Positions 10,372 through 51,100 of a DNA stretch of 54,088 bases are shown here, piece after piece; positions within the stretch are counted from its first letter, which is position 1, and the number at the start of each line of letters is the position of its first letter. The DNA is taken from positions 1-54,088 of the IMG/VR virus record IMGVR_UViG_3300037264_002957; one strand, written 5' to 3'. The position numbers and the translations under genes were made by a program. The stretch comes from a virus. Taxonomy: Duplodnaviria; Caudoviricetes. Under the pieces are notes generated by a model that worked only from the letters and a program-made list of their open reading frames with translations, was not told the origin of the DNA and made no database searches.

Positions 10372-10893
10372 ATGGTAGCAACGCTTCTTCTGAATTCTAC
10401 GTACGAACCGCTGAAAGTTGTGAACTGGCAGAGAGCGATGACGCTCCTGGCCCAGAACAAGGCGGTCGTGTGCGAGGAGCACGAGGAAACCAAGCGATCG
10501 GTGTCGTTCACGTTCCGGGTGCCGTCGGTGATCCGGTTGCTCCAGACCGTGCGGCTGCGCAAGCGGCCGGTGGTGCAGTTCACTAGGCTGAACGTCTACG
10601 CGCGGGATGAGTTCCAGTGCCAGTACTGTTTCGATCGGTTCCACCCGGAGCGGCTGACGCTCGATCACGTGCTGCCTGAGTCGCGCGGCGGCCGGAGGGT
10701 GTTCGAGAACATCGTAACGGCGTGCGTGCCGTGCAACCGCCGGAAGGACGATCGGACCCCGGAGGAAGCCGGGATGCCGCTGAAGTACAAGCCGCGGCGG
10801 CCGCTGGTCCTGGCGCCGATGATGAAGATCACGGTCGGCTGGACGACGCCGGACGCCTGGCGGACGTATCTGTTCATGCACGCACGTGCCTGA
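10372..10893 (+). CDS. HNH endonuclease (McrA-like, zinc-binding)
   Basis: LLNSTYEPL, RDEFQCQYC, TLDHVLP.SRGG, NIVTAC.PCN..K. Confidence 0.92.
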   Translation: MVATLLLNSTYEPLKVVNWQRAMTLLAQNKAVVCEEHEETKRSVSFTFRVPSVIRLLQTVRLRKRPVVQFTRLNVYARDEFQCQYCFDRFHPERLTLDHVLPESRGGRRVFENIVTACVPCNRRKDDRTPEEAGMPLKYKPRRPLVLAPMMKITVGWTTPDAWRTYLFMHARA

Positions 10894-11116
10894 TACCTAC
10901 GCGAACATCCGCGATCACAATCTCCTCGGCGCAATCATCGGCGCCAAGGTGGTGGATGTCACTCAGCACGATCGCGAGGAGTTCCAGGAAGAGGGCGCGT
11001 GTTACTTCGTGCTCCACTTCGACAATGGCGTCTGCGTGAGGGTGTACGTGGGCGACGACGGGTTCGACATCTTGAACGTGCCGGACCAACCGGACGGTAC
11101 GGTAGACCGGACGTAG
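10886..11116 (+). CDS. hypothetical acidic protein
   Basis: Coupled to HNH gene; stop overlaps tRNA-Phe 5' end. Confidence 0.55.
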   Translation: MPDTYANIRDHNLLGAIIGAKVVDVTQHDREEFQEEGACYFVLHFDNGVCVRVYVGDDGFDILNVPDQPDGTVDRT

Positions 11117-11181
11117 CTGAGACGGTGTAGCGCCGGCCTGAAAAGCCGGAGACGTCGGTTCGATTCCGACCGTTCGGGCCA
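11107..11181 (+). tRNA. tRNA-Phe(GAA)
   Basis: ccggacg/cgttcgg acceptor, ccggc-ctGAAaa-gccgg, gtcgg-ttcgatt-ccgac, encoded CCA. Confidence 0.88.
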
Positions 11182-11189
11182 AACACATT

Positions 11190-11266
11190 GCACGCGTAGC
11201 TCAACTGGCAGAAGCACCCGGCTCTTAACCGGGAGGTTGCAGGTTCGAAGCCTGCCGCGTGCACCA
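11190..11266 (+). tRNA. tRNA-Lys(CTT)
   Basis: gcacgcg/cgcgtgc acceptor, cccgg-ctCTTaa-ccggg, T arm, CCA. Confidence 0.92.
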
Positions 11267-11276
11267 CACTTTGTGC

Positions 11277-11306
11277 TTGACGAGCTTGGCGAGCTTAGCG
11301 TAAAGT
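11277..11306 (+). promoter_or_regulatory. sigma70-like promoter for ncRNA array and TROVE-vWA operon
   Basis: TTGACG-N18-TAAAGT; predicted +1 near 11312-11313 coincides with 5' end of RNA 1 stem. Confidence 0.65.
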
Positions 11307-11312
11307 CGTCGG

Positions 11313-11466
11313 GTTCGTCGCGGTTACTGGTTACGGCTACATGCTGCTTGCATAGCAGTTCCCCCAACCATCCTCGTGAGGCCATCGTTCGGTGGCTTGA
11401 CGGGGCCGGGATTGGGGGAACCAACCCGGTCCACCACAACAACCGTCCCGACTTACCGTGACGAAC
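11313..11466 (+). ncRNA. Y-RNA-like element 1
   Basis: 12-bp terminal stem gttcgtcgcggt/accgtgacgaac; TACTG, GCTACATG and CGACT motifs shared with elements 2 and 3. Confidence 0.7.
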
Positions 11467-11480
11467 ATTGAGATTGAAAT

Positions 11481-11618
11481 TCGCGTCTACTGAACGGCTT
11501 ACATGATTCCTGGTTCGAATCCGGGATCCCCCATTCATTACGGGGGATTAGCCAAATGGTAAAGGCAACAGACTTGTAATCTGTCGTGCGCAAGCACAAG
11601 CCGATCGACTCGACGCGA
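11481..11618 (+). ncRNA. Y-RNA-like element 2 containing a circularly permuted tRNA cloverleaf
   Basis: Stem tcgcgtc/gacgcga, TACTG, cggctt/aagccg, TTACATG, then T arm, closed acceptor hairpin, D arm, anticodon arm, variable arm, CGACT; T-run follows. Confidence 0.8.
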
Positions 11619-11630
11619 TGTTTTTGGGAT

Positions 11631-11745
11631 TGCCGGTTACTGCGCAGCTTACATGCAGCTCAACGGTTGAGCATTTGCCCAGAGCAAAGGGTTGTTGGTT
11701 CGATTCCAACCATACGCGAAAGCGTAGCAGCGCGACTCGCCGGCA
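11631..11745 (+). ncRNA. Y-RNA-like element 3 with D-AC-T tRNA mimic
   Basis: Stem tgccggt/gccggca, TACTG, GCTTACATG, D arm gctc/gagc, tttgc-ccaga-gcaaa, T arm gttgg-ttcgatt-ccaac, GAAA hairpin, CGACT; T-run follows. Confidence 0.78.
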
Positions 11746-11768
11746 TGTTTTTTCAGGGGTGAACGGTC

Positions 11769-13265
11769 ATGGCTGAAGTCGGCCTCACAAAGCAGCGCAT
11801 CATCGCGGAACTGACGAAGTCCCCGCACGGCAAGCTCGAGGCGTACGTGCCGGTCGGGCGCCAGGCGGTAGATAGCGATCCGGAATTCTTCGCGCACCTC
11901 ATCGCGTGGGCCGCGGTCAAGAGCGAGATCCGGGACGTCAAGGTGGCACTGCCGGTGTTGGCGCTGGCGCACAACGACAACCGAGAGTTCAGCGAGAACG
12001 CACTCGCGCACCTGGCGGATCTGGCGCCGCGCGATCTCCTGCGCGCGCTCGACTTCGCGCGGTTGTTGAAGCATCACCCACGGTACCTGCGCAGGTTTGT
12101 GGAGCGCTACCTGCGCGACCTCGAGGCGGACCGGCACGGGTTCGACCGGACGGCGCTCCAACATCGGCAGACGGTGAAGCGGCTCTACGCGCTGTACCAC
12201 GTGGCGCCTGGGGCCCACGCGGCGGCGTGCTTGTTTGGCGAGGCGCCGAAGGGGTCGGTGTTTGACGTCGTGAAGCGTCTGGATGCGATGAGCCCGTCCG
12301 AAGCGGCCGGGGCCATCATCGGCCGGAAGATTCCGTTCCTGATTGCCGCCGGCGCGCTGAAGGCGAAGCTGAAGGAGCCGGACGTCGTGATGGCGCTCAT
12401 CAAGGCGATGTCTCCGACCGAGCTGGTCACGAACATGAAGTTCTTGGAAAAGCTCGGGGTCAAGACGGACCCAGCGCTCCGGGCGGCGCTCGATGAGGCG
12501 CTGGCCAAGGCCGCGACGAGCCGGAAGCCGAAGGCGTCCATGAAGGCCTCGACCGCGGCGGCCGCCCAGACGGACGAGAAACTGCAAGCGCAGTTGCACA
12601 AGCTGCAGGAACAGCAGCTCGACCAGATGGTGATCAAGGGCAAGTGGCTCGTCCTGGGCGACAAGAGCGGGTCTATGCAGGAAGCGATCGCGATGTCGAT
12701 CGAGATTGCGGCGATGCTGGCGCGGACGGCTGAGCAGGTCTCCCTGGTGTTCTTCGACTCCGGGCCGCGCTACATCGAGGCGACCGGCAAGACGCTGTTG
12801 GAGCTGAAGATCGCGTGCCGTCACATTACGGCGCACGGCAACACGTCGATTGGCTGCGGCGTGCAGTACGCGCTCGAGCGTGGCCTGGACGTGGACGGGA
12901 TTGCGATTATCAGCGACGGTGGCGAAAACACCGTGCCGATCTTCGCGCCGGCCTACCAGCAGTTGACGAAGAAGCTGGACAAGATCATCCCGGTCTATCT
13001 GTACCTGATGTCGGGGTCCTGCGCGAACGTGCTGACGAAGAACTGCGCGCTGGTCGGGATCGACGTCCAGGAGTTCGACCTGCGCGGCGGCGTGGACAAG
13101 TACTCGTTGCCGAACTTGGCGAAGACCATGCGGGCGAATCGCTACAGCCTCGTGGACGAAATCATGGCGACGGAATTGAAGGTGTTGGATGGCGTACTCA
13201 AACAGACAAAGGGACAGGAGGTCCTTCGTGGATCAGTTGACACAGTTGAAGCGGCTCGATCTTGA
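11769..13265 (+). CDS. divergent TROVE (Ro60-like)-vWA domain RNA-binding protein
   Basis: Helical N-terminus with DPEFFAHLIAW...IRD; C-terminal vWA MIDAS DKSGS...GNT...ISDGGEN; context of Y-like RNAs and tRNAs. Confidence 0.75.
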   Translation: MAEVGLTKQRIIAELTKSPHGKLEAYVPVGRQAVDSDPEFFAHLIAWAAVKSEIRDVKVALPVLALAHNDNREFSENALAHLADLAPRDLLRALDFARLLKHHPRYLRRFVERYLRDLEADRHGFDRTALQHRQTVKRLYALYHVAPGAHAAACLFGEAPKGSVFDVVKRLDAMSPSEAAGAIIGRKIPFLIAAGALKAKLKEPDVVMALIKAMSPTELVTNMKFLEKLGVKTDPALRAALDEALAKAATSRKPKASMKASTAAAAQTDEKLQAQLHKLQEQQLDQMVIKGKWLVLGDKSGSMQEAIAMSIEIAAMLARTAEQVSLVFFDSGPRYIEATGKTLLELKIACRHITAHGNTSIGCGVQYALERGLDVDGIAIISDGGENTVPIFAPAYQQLTKKLDKIIPVYLYLMSGSCANVLTKNCALVGIDVQEFDLRGGVDKYSLPNLAKTMRANRYSLVDEIMATELKVLDGVLKQTKGQEVLRGSVDTVEAARS

Positions 13266-13542
13266 CACGATCGAGCTTGACCAGGCCGTGGCGTACGAGG
13301 TGTTCGCCAAGCAGTTGCGCGCGGGGTTCGAAGCGCGACAGCTCGACGTGCCGGAGTGGCTCAATGACCAGTTGCGCGGGTTGAACCGGACGATCGAGTC
13401 CAAGGTGGCCGACCGGAAGGCGCTGCGGATCCGCGAGCTGAAGACGGGGCTCGCGAACCTCGAGACGCCGGCCGAGAAGCGCGCGCGGCTCAAGACCGAA
13501 CTCGATGCGCTTGAGGGCGCACCGGTTGCCGTCGGTCAGTAA
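13228..13542 (+). CDS. coiled-coil partner protein of TROVE-vWA gene
   Basis: SD aggagg then GTG 13228, overlapping the vWA gene end; VPEWL motif, heptad-rich C-terminus. Confidence 0.75.
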   Translation: MDQLTQLKRLDLDTIELDQAVAYEVFAKQLRAGFEARQLDVPEWLNDQLRGLNRTIESKVADRKALRIRELKTGLANLETPAEKRARLKTELDALEGAPVAVGQ

Positions 13543-14515: not shown

Positions 14516-14606
14516 GGCGTGGTAATCCCGTACGGCGCGGGGGCTGCCTGTAGAGCAGTTTGAGGCTTCGGCTGATCAGGGTGTTCGATTCACTCACACG
14601 CCACCA
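14516..14606 (+). tRNA. tRNA-Tyr(GTA)
   Basis: ggcgtg/cacgcc, ctgc-ctGTAga-gcag, variable arm with TTCG loop, T arm, CCA. Confidence 0.8.
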
Positions 14607-25696: not shown

Positions 25697-25927
25697 ATGA
25701 CCTTCAATCGCCTCGTTGCGATTACGCCCAGCGATACGGTGAACTTCGAGAAACCACCAGACGCGATTTATGTCGGCACGGCCGGCGTAGTCGCGCTGGT
25801 GTTCGAGTCAGGCGCGGTGGTCAATATCACCGCCGTGGCTGGCGCGTTTCTTCACATCCGCCATGTGAAGCGCGTCAACAGCACCAGTACGACGGCCACA
25901 AACATGCTGGCCTGCTACAGCGTGTAG
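25697..25927 (+). CDS. head spike base protein (RCAP_rcc01079-like)
   Basis: AITPSD...AIYVGTAG...VKRVNSTSTTAT pattern. Confidence 0.75.
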   Translation: MTFNRLVAITPSDTVNFEKPPDAIYVGTAGVVALVFESGAVVNITAVAGAFLHIRHVKRVNSTSTTATNMLACYSV

Positions 25928-26034
25928 CTCCAGTTGGTCGCAAAGGCTGAACGGCGTCAAGATTCACTCGTTCTGAGTCCCGTGCCGTGGCGGCGGGCCG
26001 ATTCGTTCACGAACTGCCACGTGAAAGCGACCTT

Positions 26035-48100: not shown

Positions 48101-51100
48101 ATGCAGGACGGGGTCCTGCATGTGTATCAGGACGGCGCGCTGGTGAAGTCCGAACTGCCCGGCAAACAACAGCATCGGGTGAAGGGATTCATCAAGGTCC
48201 GAGACGCGCACACGGCGGTCCTCGACGCGAATCTCACGAACGCCGGAGATGACGTGCTCAAGGCGGCCCAGAAGAAACTGACGGCCGAGTACGAGGCCTT
48301 CGAGCGACAGTTCGGCCTCTTGAATTCCCCCAGCAACGCCAAGTTGATTCGGTACGACCCGAACGGGCCGCGTGTCCTGTCCTTGGAGTTCGTCACGAAG
48401 ACGAAGGACGGCAAGTACATCAAGACTGGGCTCGCGCGGATTTTCGATAGGCGTGTGATCCGGCCCCTGGTCGAGCCGACCAGCGCCGACACACCCATGG
48501 ATGCGCTGGCGATTAGCCTGTCGTGGCGCGGCGGTGTGGATTTGCCGTTCATGCAGGGGCTACTCAACAAGGCAGTGCCTGATGACGAACTCGCAGGCGG
48601 ACTCGCAGGCGGCATTGTTTATGGTGTCAAGCTAACTGAGGCCGTGCAAGCACTGGAGGACAAGGCCCGCCGTGCCGATCTCCTCAAGGCTCTCGCTGGA
48701 AAGATCTATCAGGACGCCCAAACCGATCAGTGGGTGCCGGCTGACCAGTATCTGTCTGGCGATGTCGTGACGAAACTCGCGCAGGCCGAAGCGCGCGGGG
48801 AGGGGTTTGAGGCCAACGTCGCCGCGCTGCGCGAGATCCAACCGAAGCGACTCGAGTCCGACGAATTCAGTGCTCCCTTCGGCGCGCCGTATATCCCGAT
48901 CGACCTCTACACGCGGTTTATCTATGAAACGATGGCGGCGCATCGGGTGGACCTGCGCCTGTTCAACACGAACCAGACGAAGTCGTTTGCGGTCGATATC
49001 GTCGGGGGCCGCCATGAGTTCCTGCCCACGTTCCCGCAGGGGATGACGCAAATCGACGTGCAGCAGTGGGTCTCGGACACCCTCAATAATAAGCTGCCGA
49101 CCATCTGGATTGGGACGGGGGACGACCGGGTCCCGGCCCAGGATGAAACCGAGCAGTACCGCGAGTCCATCAAGCAGTTGCGGGAAGCGTGGGATGGCTG
49201 GTGGACGTCCGACCGGGACGCCACCGAACGCCTCACGCAGCTCCATAACGAACTGTTCAATCGCGAAGTGCAGGAAACCTTCGATGGGTCCCACCTGGTG
49301 TTCCCGAACGCCTCCGCGGACATCACGCTGCGGTTCTGGCAGAAGAACGCCATCTGGCGCGTGCTGGCCGGCGGGAATGCGGGGATCTTCCATGCGGTCG
49401 GGACGGGGAAGACGTTTATCGGCGCCGGCATCGCGGGTGAGTGGAAGCGGCTGGGCCGAGCCAACAAGATCATGATCACGGTCCCGAATCCGGTGATCGA
49501 CCAGTGGAAAACGGCGTACGAACTCCTCTATCCCACCGCCCGGATCCTGGTGCCGACCGCGGAGGACTTCAAGGCGGCGAACCGGCGCAAGTTCGTCTCC
49601 AGCATCGCCAATAACGATTGGGATGTGATCCTCATCGGCCATTCGCAATACACGCGCGTGTCGGTGAGCACGCAGGCGTTGGCGGCCTTCACCGAAGAAC
49701 AGGTCGGGTTACTCATCGCGGACGGCGCGGAACAGACCGGCAACTCGATTGAAGACTTTGAGGGCATCGTTGAACAAATCGAGACCGACCCGCGCGCCAA
49801 GTTCCGTTATATGGGGTCACGGGGATCGTTTAGCGATAGCACGAAGGACATCGTGCGGGCGATTCTTCGTCTGCGGACGCGCCTGGCGAAGCGGACCAAC
49901 CAGGATGCCAAGGACGCCGCGGTCACGTTTGAGGAACTCGGCATTGACGCGCTCATCGTAGACGAAGCGCACGCGTTCAAGAACCTCTACTTCACCACCG
50001 GCATGAACGGCGTGGCGGGCGTGAAGCCGTCGGAGTCCGACCGCGCGATCGACATGTTCCTCAAGACGCGCATGATCAACACGGCGTCAAACAACCGGAA
50101 TCTCGTGTTCCTGACCGGCACGCCGGTGACGAACACGATGACGGAGGTGTACACGTCGTTCCGCTATCTGGCGCAAGGTGCGCTCGAGCGGCTTGGGTTG
50201 GGGGCGTTCGACGCCTGGGCCGCCGCGTACACCTCGGCTACATCCCGCATGGAGCCGTCGCCGGGCGGCGGCTACCGCGAGCGGACCCGGTTGCGGGCGT
50301 GGCGGAACCTGCGCGAGTTGTCGAAACTGTTCCGACGGTTTGCTGATGTGCTGACGACGAGTCAGGTGCGCGCCCTGCGAGACGAGAACAACAAGCCTGT
50401 TCTCCAACTCCCAAACATGAAGAACGGGCGGGCCACGGTCATCACGACGGAGCCGCACCCGATGTTCGAAGCCTTCCGTCGGGACCTGGTCGCGCGTATC
50501 GCGGCCATCAAGGCCGGTAGCCCCCTCAAAGACGGCCGGGATAACTCCCTTTGGATCACGACGGACGCCGGGAAGGCCGCGGTCGATCTGCGCCTCGTGG
50601 ACCCTGCCGTCGAGGAAGATCCGAACGGGCGCATCCCGACGATCGCCAAGGAAGTGGAGAAACGCTACAAGATGCCGTCGCTGCGCACGGACGGGTCCAT
50701 GGAAACCAAGGGCACACAACTCGTGTTTCTGGATATCGGGGTTCCCCCGCCCGAGGATCTCGAACCGTTGCCCGATCATGTGCTAAACGCCCCCGACGAG
50801 GAGATCGAGGAGGAGGACGACGAGGATACGGCGGCTGAAGAGGATGAGGTGGACGAAGGCGATGAGTTTCTCGCCGCGACCGCGCAGTTCTCCACGCTCT
50901 ACGCGGACATCCGCGACAAGCTCATCGCCCAGGGCGTGAAGAAGGACGAGATCGCGTTCATCCACCAGGCGCGCGACCGCAGTGAACTCAAAAAGCTGTA
51001 CGCCGCGGTGAACGCGGGCCGCATCCGGGTCTTGATCGCCACGCGGGCGAAGGGCGGGATCGGCGTCAATGTCCAGAACAAGGTCGTCGCGATTCACCAT

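Follow-up and report, generated by a model that had tools for sequence, protein, structure and literature searches.

YrlA RNAs are Y RNAs known from 254 bacteria and 22 phages, where they are encoded on the strand of the Ro60 gene and at most 4 kb from it; several are located beside transfer RNA (tRNA) genes (PMC4201824). Their heads consist, in order, of V, T, a closed acceptor stem, and D, and carry pseudouridine 55 and dihydrouridine (PMC4201824). The crystal structure of a YrlA head (6CU1) is a tRNA-like L (bioRxiv 10.1101/312249), and YrlA was described in print as a circularly permuted tRNA mimic in 2014 and 2018 (PMC4201824; bioRxiv 10.1101/312249). In Mycobacterium smegmatis, YrlA has an acceptor stem of 7 bp, the length given as the main RNase P determinant; the enzyme cuts this RNA in vitro, and CA is found added to it in vivo (PMC4201824). 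A passage of bioRxiv 10.1101/312249 credits Sim and Wolin 2018 with the proposal that Y RNAs of this type derive from dimeric tRNA transcripts, and the same source cites the circularly permuted tRNA genes known from Cyanidioschyzon merolae and Thermofilum pendens. In phages, the Ro60 of phage phiLo binds two phage-encoded Y-like RNAs and host PNPase, according to passages of PMC12135203. Here we describe RNA 2, encoded at positions 11482-11617 on the + strand of IMG/VR virus record IMGVR_UViG_3300037264_002957. The whole record of 54,088 bases, estimated to be 94% complete and with 63% G+C, was analysed and is referred to as the window. We consider it likely that RNA 2 is a phage-made Y RNA of the YrlA kind, because the next gene has a predicted Ro60 fold and because RNA 2 is one of three arrayed RNAs that share a stem.

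The minimum free energy (MFE) fold of 11474-11626 has an energy of -55.6 kcal/mol (z = -4.1) and encloses five hairpins in a long terminal stem; none of 200 shuffled sequences was as stable. An earlier note on this DNA, made from the sequence alone, had described a tRNA cloverleaf at this site; a check of the sequence found every arm where that note had placed it, and the MFE fold reproduces the five hairpins. Relatives of RNA 2 were drawn from 125 loci with relatives of the neighboring protein, 45 viral and 80 metagenomic, the latter being 80 retained out of 233 stretches encoding a relative of the protein. Together with the window these loci make up 126 sequences and 740,552 bases. Two alignments were evaluated: A2, which contains eight RNA 2-type RNAs scored against a hand-written structure, and A3, which contains ten RNAs aligned to a covariance model, R1, built from A2. 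In A2, 97.0% of cells are paired and 23 of 29 pairs have changed on both sides, while the corresponding values in A3 are 96.6% and 26 of 29, with the paired shares raised by how the RNAs were chosen (see below). Slid controls gave 36-47% for A2 and 35-46% for A3. None of 500 shuffles reached any of the measures for A2, and none of 500 did so for A3. Because this pairing and covariation is unmatched in the shuffles, the fold of RNA 2 is beyond chance.

The ends of RNA 2 pair in two steps. The outer stem, P1, is a 6-bp helix between 11482-11487 and 11612-11617, supported by the MFE fold and by covariation: it is 100% paired, with both-side changes in five of its six pairs in A2 and in all six in A3. 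The inner stem, P2, pairs 11491-11500 with 11598-11607 in the MFE fold and contains one A.A mismatch. Between P1 and P2 is an internal loop, with the sequence UAC (11488-11490) unpaired on the 5' side, where the family of 137 units discussed below has the consensus Y-A-C and then U-G. On its 3' side, the loop consists of the ACUC of a conserved CGACUC (11606-11611), of which CGAC is invariant in A2. P2 leads into a conserved UACAUG motif and linker (11500-11508), the motif being present in all 137 units by construction. U11508 stands at the site of tRNA position 48 and faces A15 of the D loop, the place of the Levitt pair, with T at that column in seven of the eight RNAs of A2.

The head that follows contains each part of a tRNA. 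The T arm (11509-11525; CCTGG/TTCGAAT/CCGGG), found by both the MFE fold and ARAGORN, has a 5-bp stem with both-side changes in four of five pairs in A2, and a UUCGAAU loop; the equivalents of G53, U54, U55, C56, G57, A58, U60, and C61 are invariant in all eight RNAs. The acceptor stem is a closed hairpin of 7 bp in the fold and by ARAGORN (3' strand 11526-11532, loop 11533-11541, 5' strand 11542-11548), with both-side changes in six of seven pairs in A2 and seven of seven in A3. Its loop of 9 nt starts with an A73-like base, and CCA is not encoded. A UA linker (11549-11550) corresponds in sequence to U8 and A9 of tRNA, with U as its first base in seven of the eight RNAs of A2. The D arm (11551-11566; fold and ARAGORN) has 3 bp plus an A.A pair and a loop with the equivalents of A14, A15, G18, and G19. 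Three of its four pairs have changed on both sides in A2, and G10, A14, A15, G18, G19, and the next A are invariant in all eight. The anticodon arm (11568-11584) has a 5-bp stem that is 100% paired and changed on both sides at five of five pairs in A2 and A3 alike. Its 7-nt loop, CUUGUAA, carries the triplet UGU at 11575-11577; the fold and ARAGORN agree on this, as the earlier note had read it. The last element, a variable hairpin of 4 bp with a GCAA loop (11586-11597; MFE fold), is clear in just four of 13 RNA 2-type relatives when the sequences are read by eye. Beyond P1, a U-rich run, TGTTTTT, at 11619-11625 is by its sequence a possible 3' end signal. A terminator scan made no call on this run, and TTTT occurs within 10 nt 3' of the unit in only 25 of the 137 units.

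In place, RNA 2 gives no tRNA call with ARAGORN, and the Rfam tRNA model reaches 25.6 bits on 11542-11611, below its gathering score of 29. Joining 11542-11597 to 11507-11533 yields tRNA-Thr(tgt) by ARAGORN in four of four variants; in this call the D stem has 3 bp and the variable arm is long. The same call is returned when 11507-11597 is taken as a circle, and for 172 of 180 choices of cut point. That the cloverleaf is whole and circularly permuted is therefore borne out by the test that the earlier note had proposed for it. Its further claim, that the acceptor end is sealed and the RNA uncharged as transcribed, agrees with the 9-nt loop without CCA and with the negative in-place call. A functional tRNA presents a continuous cloverleaf with a free 5' end and a 3' CCA; RNA 2 as transcribed does not, and rejoining restores the cloverleaf. 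The description of the body as Tyr-like was not supported. Among the 383 tRNAs called by ARAGORN in the window and the 125 loci, none is more than 69% identical to the rejoined head, which rules out a recent tRNA copy; the best matches of the head are the class I types Ala, Ile, Trp, Lys, and His, and the variable hairpin is not clear in most relatives.

The 498-codon open reading frame (ORF) at 11769-13265 on the + strand starts 152 nt after the end of RNA 2. Going by its predicted structure, its product has the Ro60/TROVE fold, a ring of helical repeats followed by a vWA domain, and it is the presumed partner of the three RNAs. The AlphaFold2 model of the 498-residue protein has a predicted local distance difference test score (pLDDT) of 84.3 and a predicted template modeling score (pTM) of 0.67. 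In a Foldseek search with this model, the top 12 rows (ranks 1-13) are all Ro60/TROVE proteins, with E values from 2e-10 to 3.7e-7, template modeling (TM) scores of 0.56-0.66, and 469-546 aligned columns. They include the Ro60 of Thermus phage phiLo as the best match, Xenopus Ro60 with Y RNA, Deinococcus radiodurans Rsr, and human Ro60, and isolated vWA domains come below them. A profile of 26 relatives matched two TROVE-domain proteins in the PDB at E 4.6e-4 and human Ro60 at 0.13. The vWA motif D-x-S-x-S (D298, S300, S302), which we take to be the one named MIDAS in passages on phiLo, is invariant among relatives. PHROGs annotates the protein as 'RNA-binding protein' (2e-7), and Pfam gives only a sub-threshold vWA match. 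Relatives are numerous in metagenomes, with 865 proteins at E <= 1e-3 among 8,000 candidates scored. Among deposited phages a relative was found in one of 50,697 records, at 29.5% identity, and species genomes contributed six loci, all in metagenome-assembled genomes. Searches of deposited phages gave no megablast match for 11000-13300 and no blastn match for RNA 2.

RNA 2 is the middle one of three structured RNAs on the + strand that are located between tRNA-Lys(ctt) and the Ro60-like gene. RNA 1 (11319-11460), identified by its fold and by R1, has the terminal stem and motifs of RNA 2 and a head that is not tRNA-like, a long G+C-rich hairpin with neither T arm nor D arm (-78.8 kcal/mol, z = -4.96). 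RNA 3 (11632-11744), identified by its fold and by the Rfam tRNA model, has the same terminal stem and a head in the native order D-anticodon-T. The Rfam tRNA model scores 34.2 bits on 11653-11713 of RNA 3, above the gathering score, and ARAGORN makes no call in place; the head has a D arm, a short-looped stem, and a T arm, with a GAAA-capped hairpin (~11712-11727) in place of the acceptor 3' strand. All three RNAs share a 6-bp terminal stem, Y-A-C-U-G, an inner stem, U-A-C-A-Y-G, a head, C-G-A-C-U-Y, and the closing strand of the terminal stem. R1 scores 124.1 bits on RNA 2, 30.0 on RNA 3, and 29.9 on RNA 1 (E 5.7e-5), and over the 126 sources it gave 276 matches at E <= 0.01, of which 275 are on the gene's strand.

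The shared stem was searched for with a pattern of AC[TG]G, 3-14 nt, [AT]ACA[CT]G, and AC[CT][CT] within 45-270 nt, with at least five of six terminal pairs formed. This pattern matches 182 times on the strand of the gene and 6 times on the other strand of the 126 sequences, and removal of duplicates leaves 137 distinct units. No unit was found in 41 of the 126 sequences, many of which have short upstream flanks. Relative to the gene, 166 units in the 125 loci are upstream, 1 is downstream, and 9 are inside, with flanks of about equal size (256,966 vs 245,780 bp) and a median distance from unit to start codon of 416 nt. Positions that the pattern leaves free are also conserved across the 137 units: ACUY is preceded by C (0.89) and G (0.86), a G (0.91) stands three bases 5' of UACAYG, and a pyrimidine precedes A-C-[U/G]-G (T 0.65, C 0.23). 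Because the units sit upstream on the gene's strand, with pattern-free positions conserved, the linkage of the stem to the gene is, as far as sequences tell, the signature of an RNA partner of the Ro60-like protein. Three further pattern matches in the window, at 12821-13013, 25885-25975, and 50134-50295, are not matched by R1 and were taken as chance. Arrays of up to seven differing units per locus stand upstream of the Ro60-like gene at L003 (=L037), L047, L008, L063, and L087. The L047 array mixes a native-order head (1899), an RNA 2-type head (2030), a unit without a tRNA-like head (2173), and a YrlA-type head (2293).

The heads carried on this stem were classified by cutting away the stem, circularizing the head, and running ARAGORN with 180 cut choices per unit. 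A tRNA call was obtained for 62 of the 137 units, and 75 gave none, including RNA 1 and RNA 3 of the window; when the heads were shuffled (17,862 sequences), 0 of the 137 units gave any call. Among the 62 called units, the stem enters at the native order or acceptor end in 30, inside the anticodon stem, as in the published YrlA layout, in 14, on the variable/T side, as in RNA 2, in 12 (RNA 2 counted), and between the D arm and the anticodon arm in 6. Eight of the 12 variable/T units have a stable three-letter anticodon in 94-180 of the 180 cut choices: RNA 2 of the window (Thr tgt), L003:2359 and L012:1918 (both Leu taa), L025:965 (Ile tat), L047:2030 (Met cat), L050:2318 (Ser gct), L064:2104 (Ser tga), and L092:1579 (Leu tag). 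The remaining four, L032:2715, L058:1855, L093:361, and L097:1220, are weak or odd-looped. ARAGORN reads the native-order heads (30 of 137) as ordinary tRNAs, for example at L021:2692-2815, L101:2065-2186, L107:2130-2253, and L075:675-794. In these units the UACAYG motif runs into the acceptor 5' strand, and in L021 and L101 a G and CCA are encoded after the acceptor stem. The native-order units may be real tRNAs with a Ro60-binding leader and trailer, or further mimics.

R1 detected five further RNAs with the RNA 2 layout that the pattern had missed. Their anticodon loops are CUUCAAA in L029:1870, UUGAAGA in L124:1270, 8 nt long in L070:2068, CUCUAAA in L132:1683-1820 (79.5 bits; adjoining protein 44% identical to that of the window), and CUUAGGA in L135:2344-2480 (40.3 bits; adjoining protein 35% identical). 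L135, which has the most distant protein relative and carries its RNA 2-type RNA directly 5' of that gene, is a 428,184-base contig of a Solibacteraceae metagenome-assembled genome; this copy may belong to a prophage or be cellular. Loop position 2 is U in all 12 seven-nucleotide anticodon loops, and position 6 is a purine in the ten relatives read position by position, which do not include L132 and L135. The triplets of RNA 2-type RNAs across phages are UGU, UAA, UAU, CAU, GCU, UGA, UAG, UCA, GAA, and CUA. One anticodon stem, ACAGA/UCUGU, carries two of these triplets, UGU in the window and UAA in L003 and L012. Because the shape is kept while the triplet varies, even on the same stem, the sequences suggest that selection acts on the form of the arm, or on changing targets, rather than on the reading of one codon. 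Two of the triplets, UCA in L029:1870-2005 and CUA in L132:1683-1820, would read stop codons. In flanks of related loci, ARAGORN calls tRNA-Stop(tta) and tRNA-SeC(tca) (L002:6452-6537, L002:1411-1481, L015:1708-1781). Sister RNAs with identical acceptor sequence and no anticodon arm occur at L028:2142, L110:1642, and L060:202; on the strength of these armless sisters, the arm has been gained or lost within one lineage.

Several results weigh against assigning RNA 2 to the YrlA kind of Y RNA. RNA 2 gives no match to the Rfam YrlA model RF02553 (gathering score 69 bits), nor did cmscan at E <= 10 list one, and the best match of this model in the phage is 15.4 bits on 11215-11318, a tRNA. None of the 137 units has the Ro-binding motif GNCGAAN0-1G within its first 30 nt, nor do RNAs 1-3 contain it; the loop of YAC-UG and CGACUY stands where the motif would be expected. 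It is the linkage to the gene from which we infer that the Ro60-like protein binds the YAC/CGACUY stem. On the protein side, Pfam TROVE (PF05731) has no match at E <= 10 to the protein or to the six-frame translation of the phage, and it is found in none of the 120 relatives listed. A single-protein phmmer search of the PDB also returned no match. Finally, the RNAs of A2 were picked for ARAGORN closure and those of A3 were fitted to a model, so that the paired share in both alignments is inflated by selection; the double changes are not inflated.

We propose that the ends of RNA 2 pair into P1 and P2 around the internal loop (Y-A-C / C-G-A-C-U-Y) and that this two-part stem would be the docking site for the Ro60-fold ring protein encoded 152 nt downstream. 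The docking stem would project from the variable/T junction of the tRNA body in the manner of an outsized variable arm. With the elbow and core bases in place, the head is expected to take the L shape of tRNA and to be recognizable by tRNA-binding proteins. Our favored guess is that the particle would show a sealed tRNA look-alike to host nucleases, to modification or repair enzymes, or to PNPase, as in other Ro60 particles, with the sealed form as the working form. Maturation into a chargeable tRNA is unlikely as a general route, because six of the 13 RNA 2-type RNAs are sealed by a 4-nt loop and because domain searches of the phage found neither an RtcB ligase nor a CCA-adding enzyme domain. 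The interpretation offered in the earlier note is partly supported, and it lacked the Ro60 context and the array of three RNAs; a decoy, as that note suggested, is one possible role of the tRNA-shaped head.

One alternative adds a step to the Y RNA reading. RNase P would cut before G11542, the other end would be trimmed to A11533, and a host enzyme would add CCA, as in M. smegmatis YrlA, to give an opened tRNA in two pieces. Such a tRNA, nicked and bearing the stem, would offer an anticodon together with a free CCA end, and it might accept an amino acid or be taken up by the ribosome. The 9-nt loop starts with an A73-like base, and in relatives the loop starts with ACCA (L012:1918) or with ACC/GCC (L025:965, L092:1579); it also starts with ACCA in L031:2650, a unit of YrlA layout that lacks the anticodon arm. 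Two bases of the anticodon loop, G35 and U36, which have a role in the identity of substrates for threonyl-tRNA synthetase, fit a Thr anticodon. The acceptor stem has the 7 bp of the M. smegmatis YrlA that is cut by RNase P and receives CA (PMC4201824), and by analogy RNase P opening of the window's RNA 2, with its 7-bp stem and 9-nt loop, is possible. However, opening is not general among these RNAs, because six of the 13 RNA 2-type RNAs (L047, L064, L029, L070, L124, L132) have a 4-nt acceptor loop. The loop in the window lacks CCA, the phage lacks a CCA-adding domain, and the presence of UGU and UAA on the same anticodon stem in close relatives is a poor fit to a fixed decoding role. We regard this opened form, with its possible charging or entry into the ribosome, as unlikely in this phage.

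The anticodon arm and variable hairpin could instead be relics, functionless leftovers of an ancestral tandem tRNA pair carried on a Y RNA. The layout matches the order of the dimeric-tRNA model as given in passages of the source cited above (T arm, acceptor 3' strand, spacer, acceptor 5' strand, D arm, anticodon arm), L012:1918 and L031:2650 still have ACCA behind the acceptor 3' strand, the triplet varies, and armless sisters with the same acceptor sequence exist. However, five perfect anticodon-stem pairs have been kept through both-side changes at all five positions, and the 7-nt loop has retained U as its second base (12 relatives) and a purine as its sixth (10 read). The arm is also kept beside proteins with as little as 35% identity, and a neutral hairpin would not hold its shape that far. 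Decay of this kind is therefore very improbable as an account of the arm.

Slightly less probable again is that RNA 2 is a permuted pre-tRNA like those of Cyanidioschyzon merolae, with processing that cuts out the terminal stem, joins the ends into a circle, and opens the acceptor loop to give an ordinary tRNA-Thr(UGU) for phage translation. ARAGORN accepts the rejoined sequence, and none of the nine other tRNA genes that it finds in the phage is of Thr type. The earlier note had suggested a precursor that is cut and ligated into a tRNA, and the same possibility was raised for YrlA by Wang et al. (bioRxiv 10.1101/312249). This idea fares poorly across the family, where 75 of the 137 heads on the stem give no tRNA call, 14 have the stem in place of the anticodon stem so that no tRNA is possible, and 4-nt sealing loops are common. 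Processing would require the exact removal of 11598-11617 and 11482-11508 at the junction, and the phage has no RtcB ligase. The internal loop places 3 and 4 nt opposite each other, which is not a bulge-helix-bulge as that motif is usually defined. Chance resemblance, or a decayed and functionless pair of tRNA pseudogenes, has only its location in a tRNA cluster in its favor and is contradicted by the covariation, by the 0 of 137 shuffled heads called, and by the strand and position bias of the stem, leaving it a negligible probability.

Returning to RNA 2 as a phage Y RNA, we tentatively put forward a wider reading that is, taken as a whole, rather improbable. A large, undescribed phage branch of Ro60 would use one universal docking stem as a handle for tRNA-shaped heads in several permutations, with the RNA 2-type RNAs as baits, tethered to Ro60, for those host enzymes by which anticodon loops are inspected or attacked. 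The baits would soak up anti-phage anticodon nucleases or hand them to particle-bound PNPase, their triplets would track the host's weapons, and the family would be the first living intermediate for a tandem-tRNA origin of Y RNAs. The role of the tRNA-like domain in bacterial Y RNAs has been open since 2014, and as published YrlA has no anticodon loop, guesses have been limited to proteins that bind the elbow. A complete, covarying anticodon arm with a changing triplet, in phages and beside tRNA clusters, points to partners that read the anticodon, such as nucleases, modification enzymes, and synthetases. The locus also adds a Ro60 branch that is invisible to Pfam TROVE and a new candidate Ro-binding motif, and its natural series of permutations on one scaffold is useful for considering the tandem-tRNA origin of Y RNAs.

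The surroundings of the array are those of a tailed phage, with genes for portal, major head, scaffold, head-closure, and tail-spike proteins. Directly 5' of the Y RNA array, on the + strand, are tRNA-Phe(gaa) and tRNA-Lys(ctt) (11107-11266, with tRNA-Lys(ctt) at 11190-11266). An HNH endonuclease ORF (10372-10893; Pfam HNH_5, 1.6e-14) is located directly upstream of the tRNA and Y RNA cluster, and 10 ORFs around the locus match nothing in Pfam. Just 5' of RNA 1, 11277-11306 resembles a sigma-70 promoter (TTGACG, 18 nt, TAAAGT; 9 of 12 positions), which is a consensus match only. A search of sequencing runs for this sequence gave one DNA data set, possibly that of the source sample, and no RNA data set. 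Between tRNA-Leu(gag) and tRNA-Leu(cag), 14516-14602 gives a weak tRNA-Sec match of 30.1 bits, against a gathering score of 47, with no ARAGORN call, and is possibly an odd or decayed tRNA.

Among described systems, Y-like RNAs of phage origin are known from Thermus phage phiLo, where a Ro60-fold protein (PDB 9KOP, 9L5Y) is encoded downstream of the Y-like RNAs Yrl1 and Yrl2, as passages of PMC12135203 describe. In contrast to RNA 2, the Yrl RNAs are depicted there as stem-bulge-stem structures with a CGAA motif, those passages do not mention a tRNA-like head, and the proteins are only ~14% identical. Yrn1 of D. radiodurans is a Y RNA that combines a T arm with a 'potential anticodon arm' whose stem has 5 bp, but its loop has 6 nt, its D arm is doubtful, its arms are in another order, and its Ro-binding helix is metazoan-like (PMC4201824). 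The b7a-tRNA, a predicted RNA beside genes for Band-7, RtcB, and occasionally Rsr, is likewise a near-complete tRNA look-alike in a Ro60 and RNA-repair neighborhood, as reported in a passage of bioRxiv 10.1101/312249 that credits Burroughs and Aravind 2016. It resembles the native-order heads, such as RNA 3 and those of the 30 of 137 units, and differs from RNA 2 in that it is not permuted and, in that passage, is given no Ro-type stem.

The permuted tRNAs of algae and archaea are related to RNA 2 by layout. In Cyanidioschyzon merolae and Thermofilum pendens, the 3' half precedes the 5' half and a loop closes the acceptor of the transcript; the precursor is cut at a bulge-helix-bulge and ligated. 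RNA 2 also has its 3' half first and a loop-closed acceptor, but it lacks a bulge-helix-bulge, the phage has no ligase, and its stem is common to heads that are unable to become tRNAs.

The closest likeness is to YrlA itself (RF02553, 6CU1). A Ro60-type gene lies a short way downstream of RNA 2 on the same strand, the ends of RNA 2 pair into a stem, and its head runs in the order T arm, loop-closed acceptor stem, UA, and D arm. The elbow bases of the T and D loops are kept, with an A15:U48-type pair, and the Y-U-A-Y-like motif before the T arm has its counterpart in the UACAYG of the RNA 2 family. M. smegmatis YrlA further shares the 7-bp acceptor stem, a second adjoining Y RNA, and a position upstream of the Ro60 gene; cutting by RNase P and the adding of CCA have been shown there, and an anticodon arm is not part of its description in the source passages. 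Judged by the features that define the YrlA class (Chen et al. 2014), RNA 2 has the location within 4 kb on the same strand, the head order, and the core bases. It does not have a terminal stem that replaces the anticodon stem, with no anticodon loop. A search of the literature found no permuted tRNA-like Y RNA with an anticodon arm, and the supplementary alignments of Chen et al. (254 bacterial and 22 phage RNAs) might contain one. In the published form of YrlA the terminal stem stands in for the anticodon stem, whereas in RNA 2 the D arm is followed by a separate anticodon arm of 5 bp and 7 nt, and the terminal stem exits at the variable/T junction. A circularly permuted tRNA mimic tied to Ro60 is an idea already published, and RNA 2 is not a new class. 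It is best filed as a fuller mimic than the known YrlA RNAs, a complete permuted tRNA belonging to a phage branch of Ro60 that is so far undescribed and has a putative docking motif of its own.

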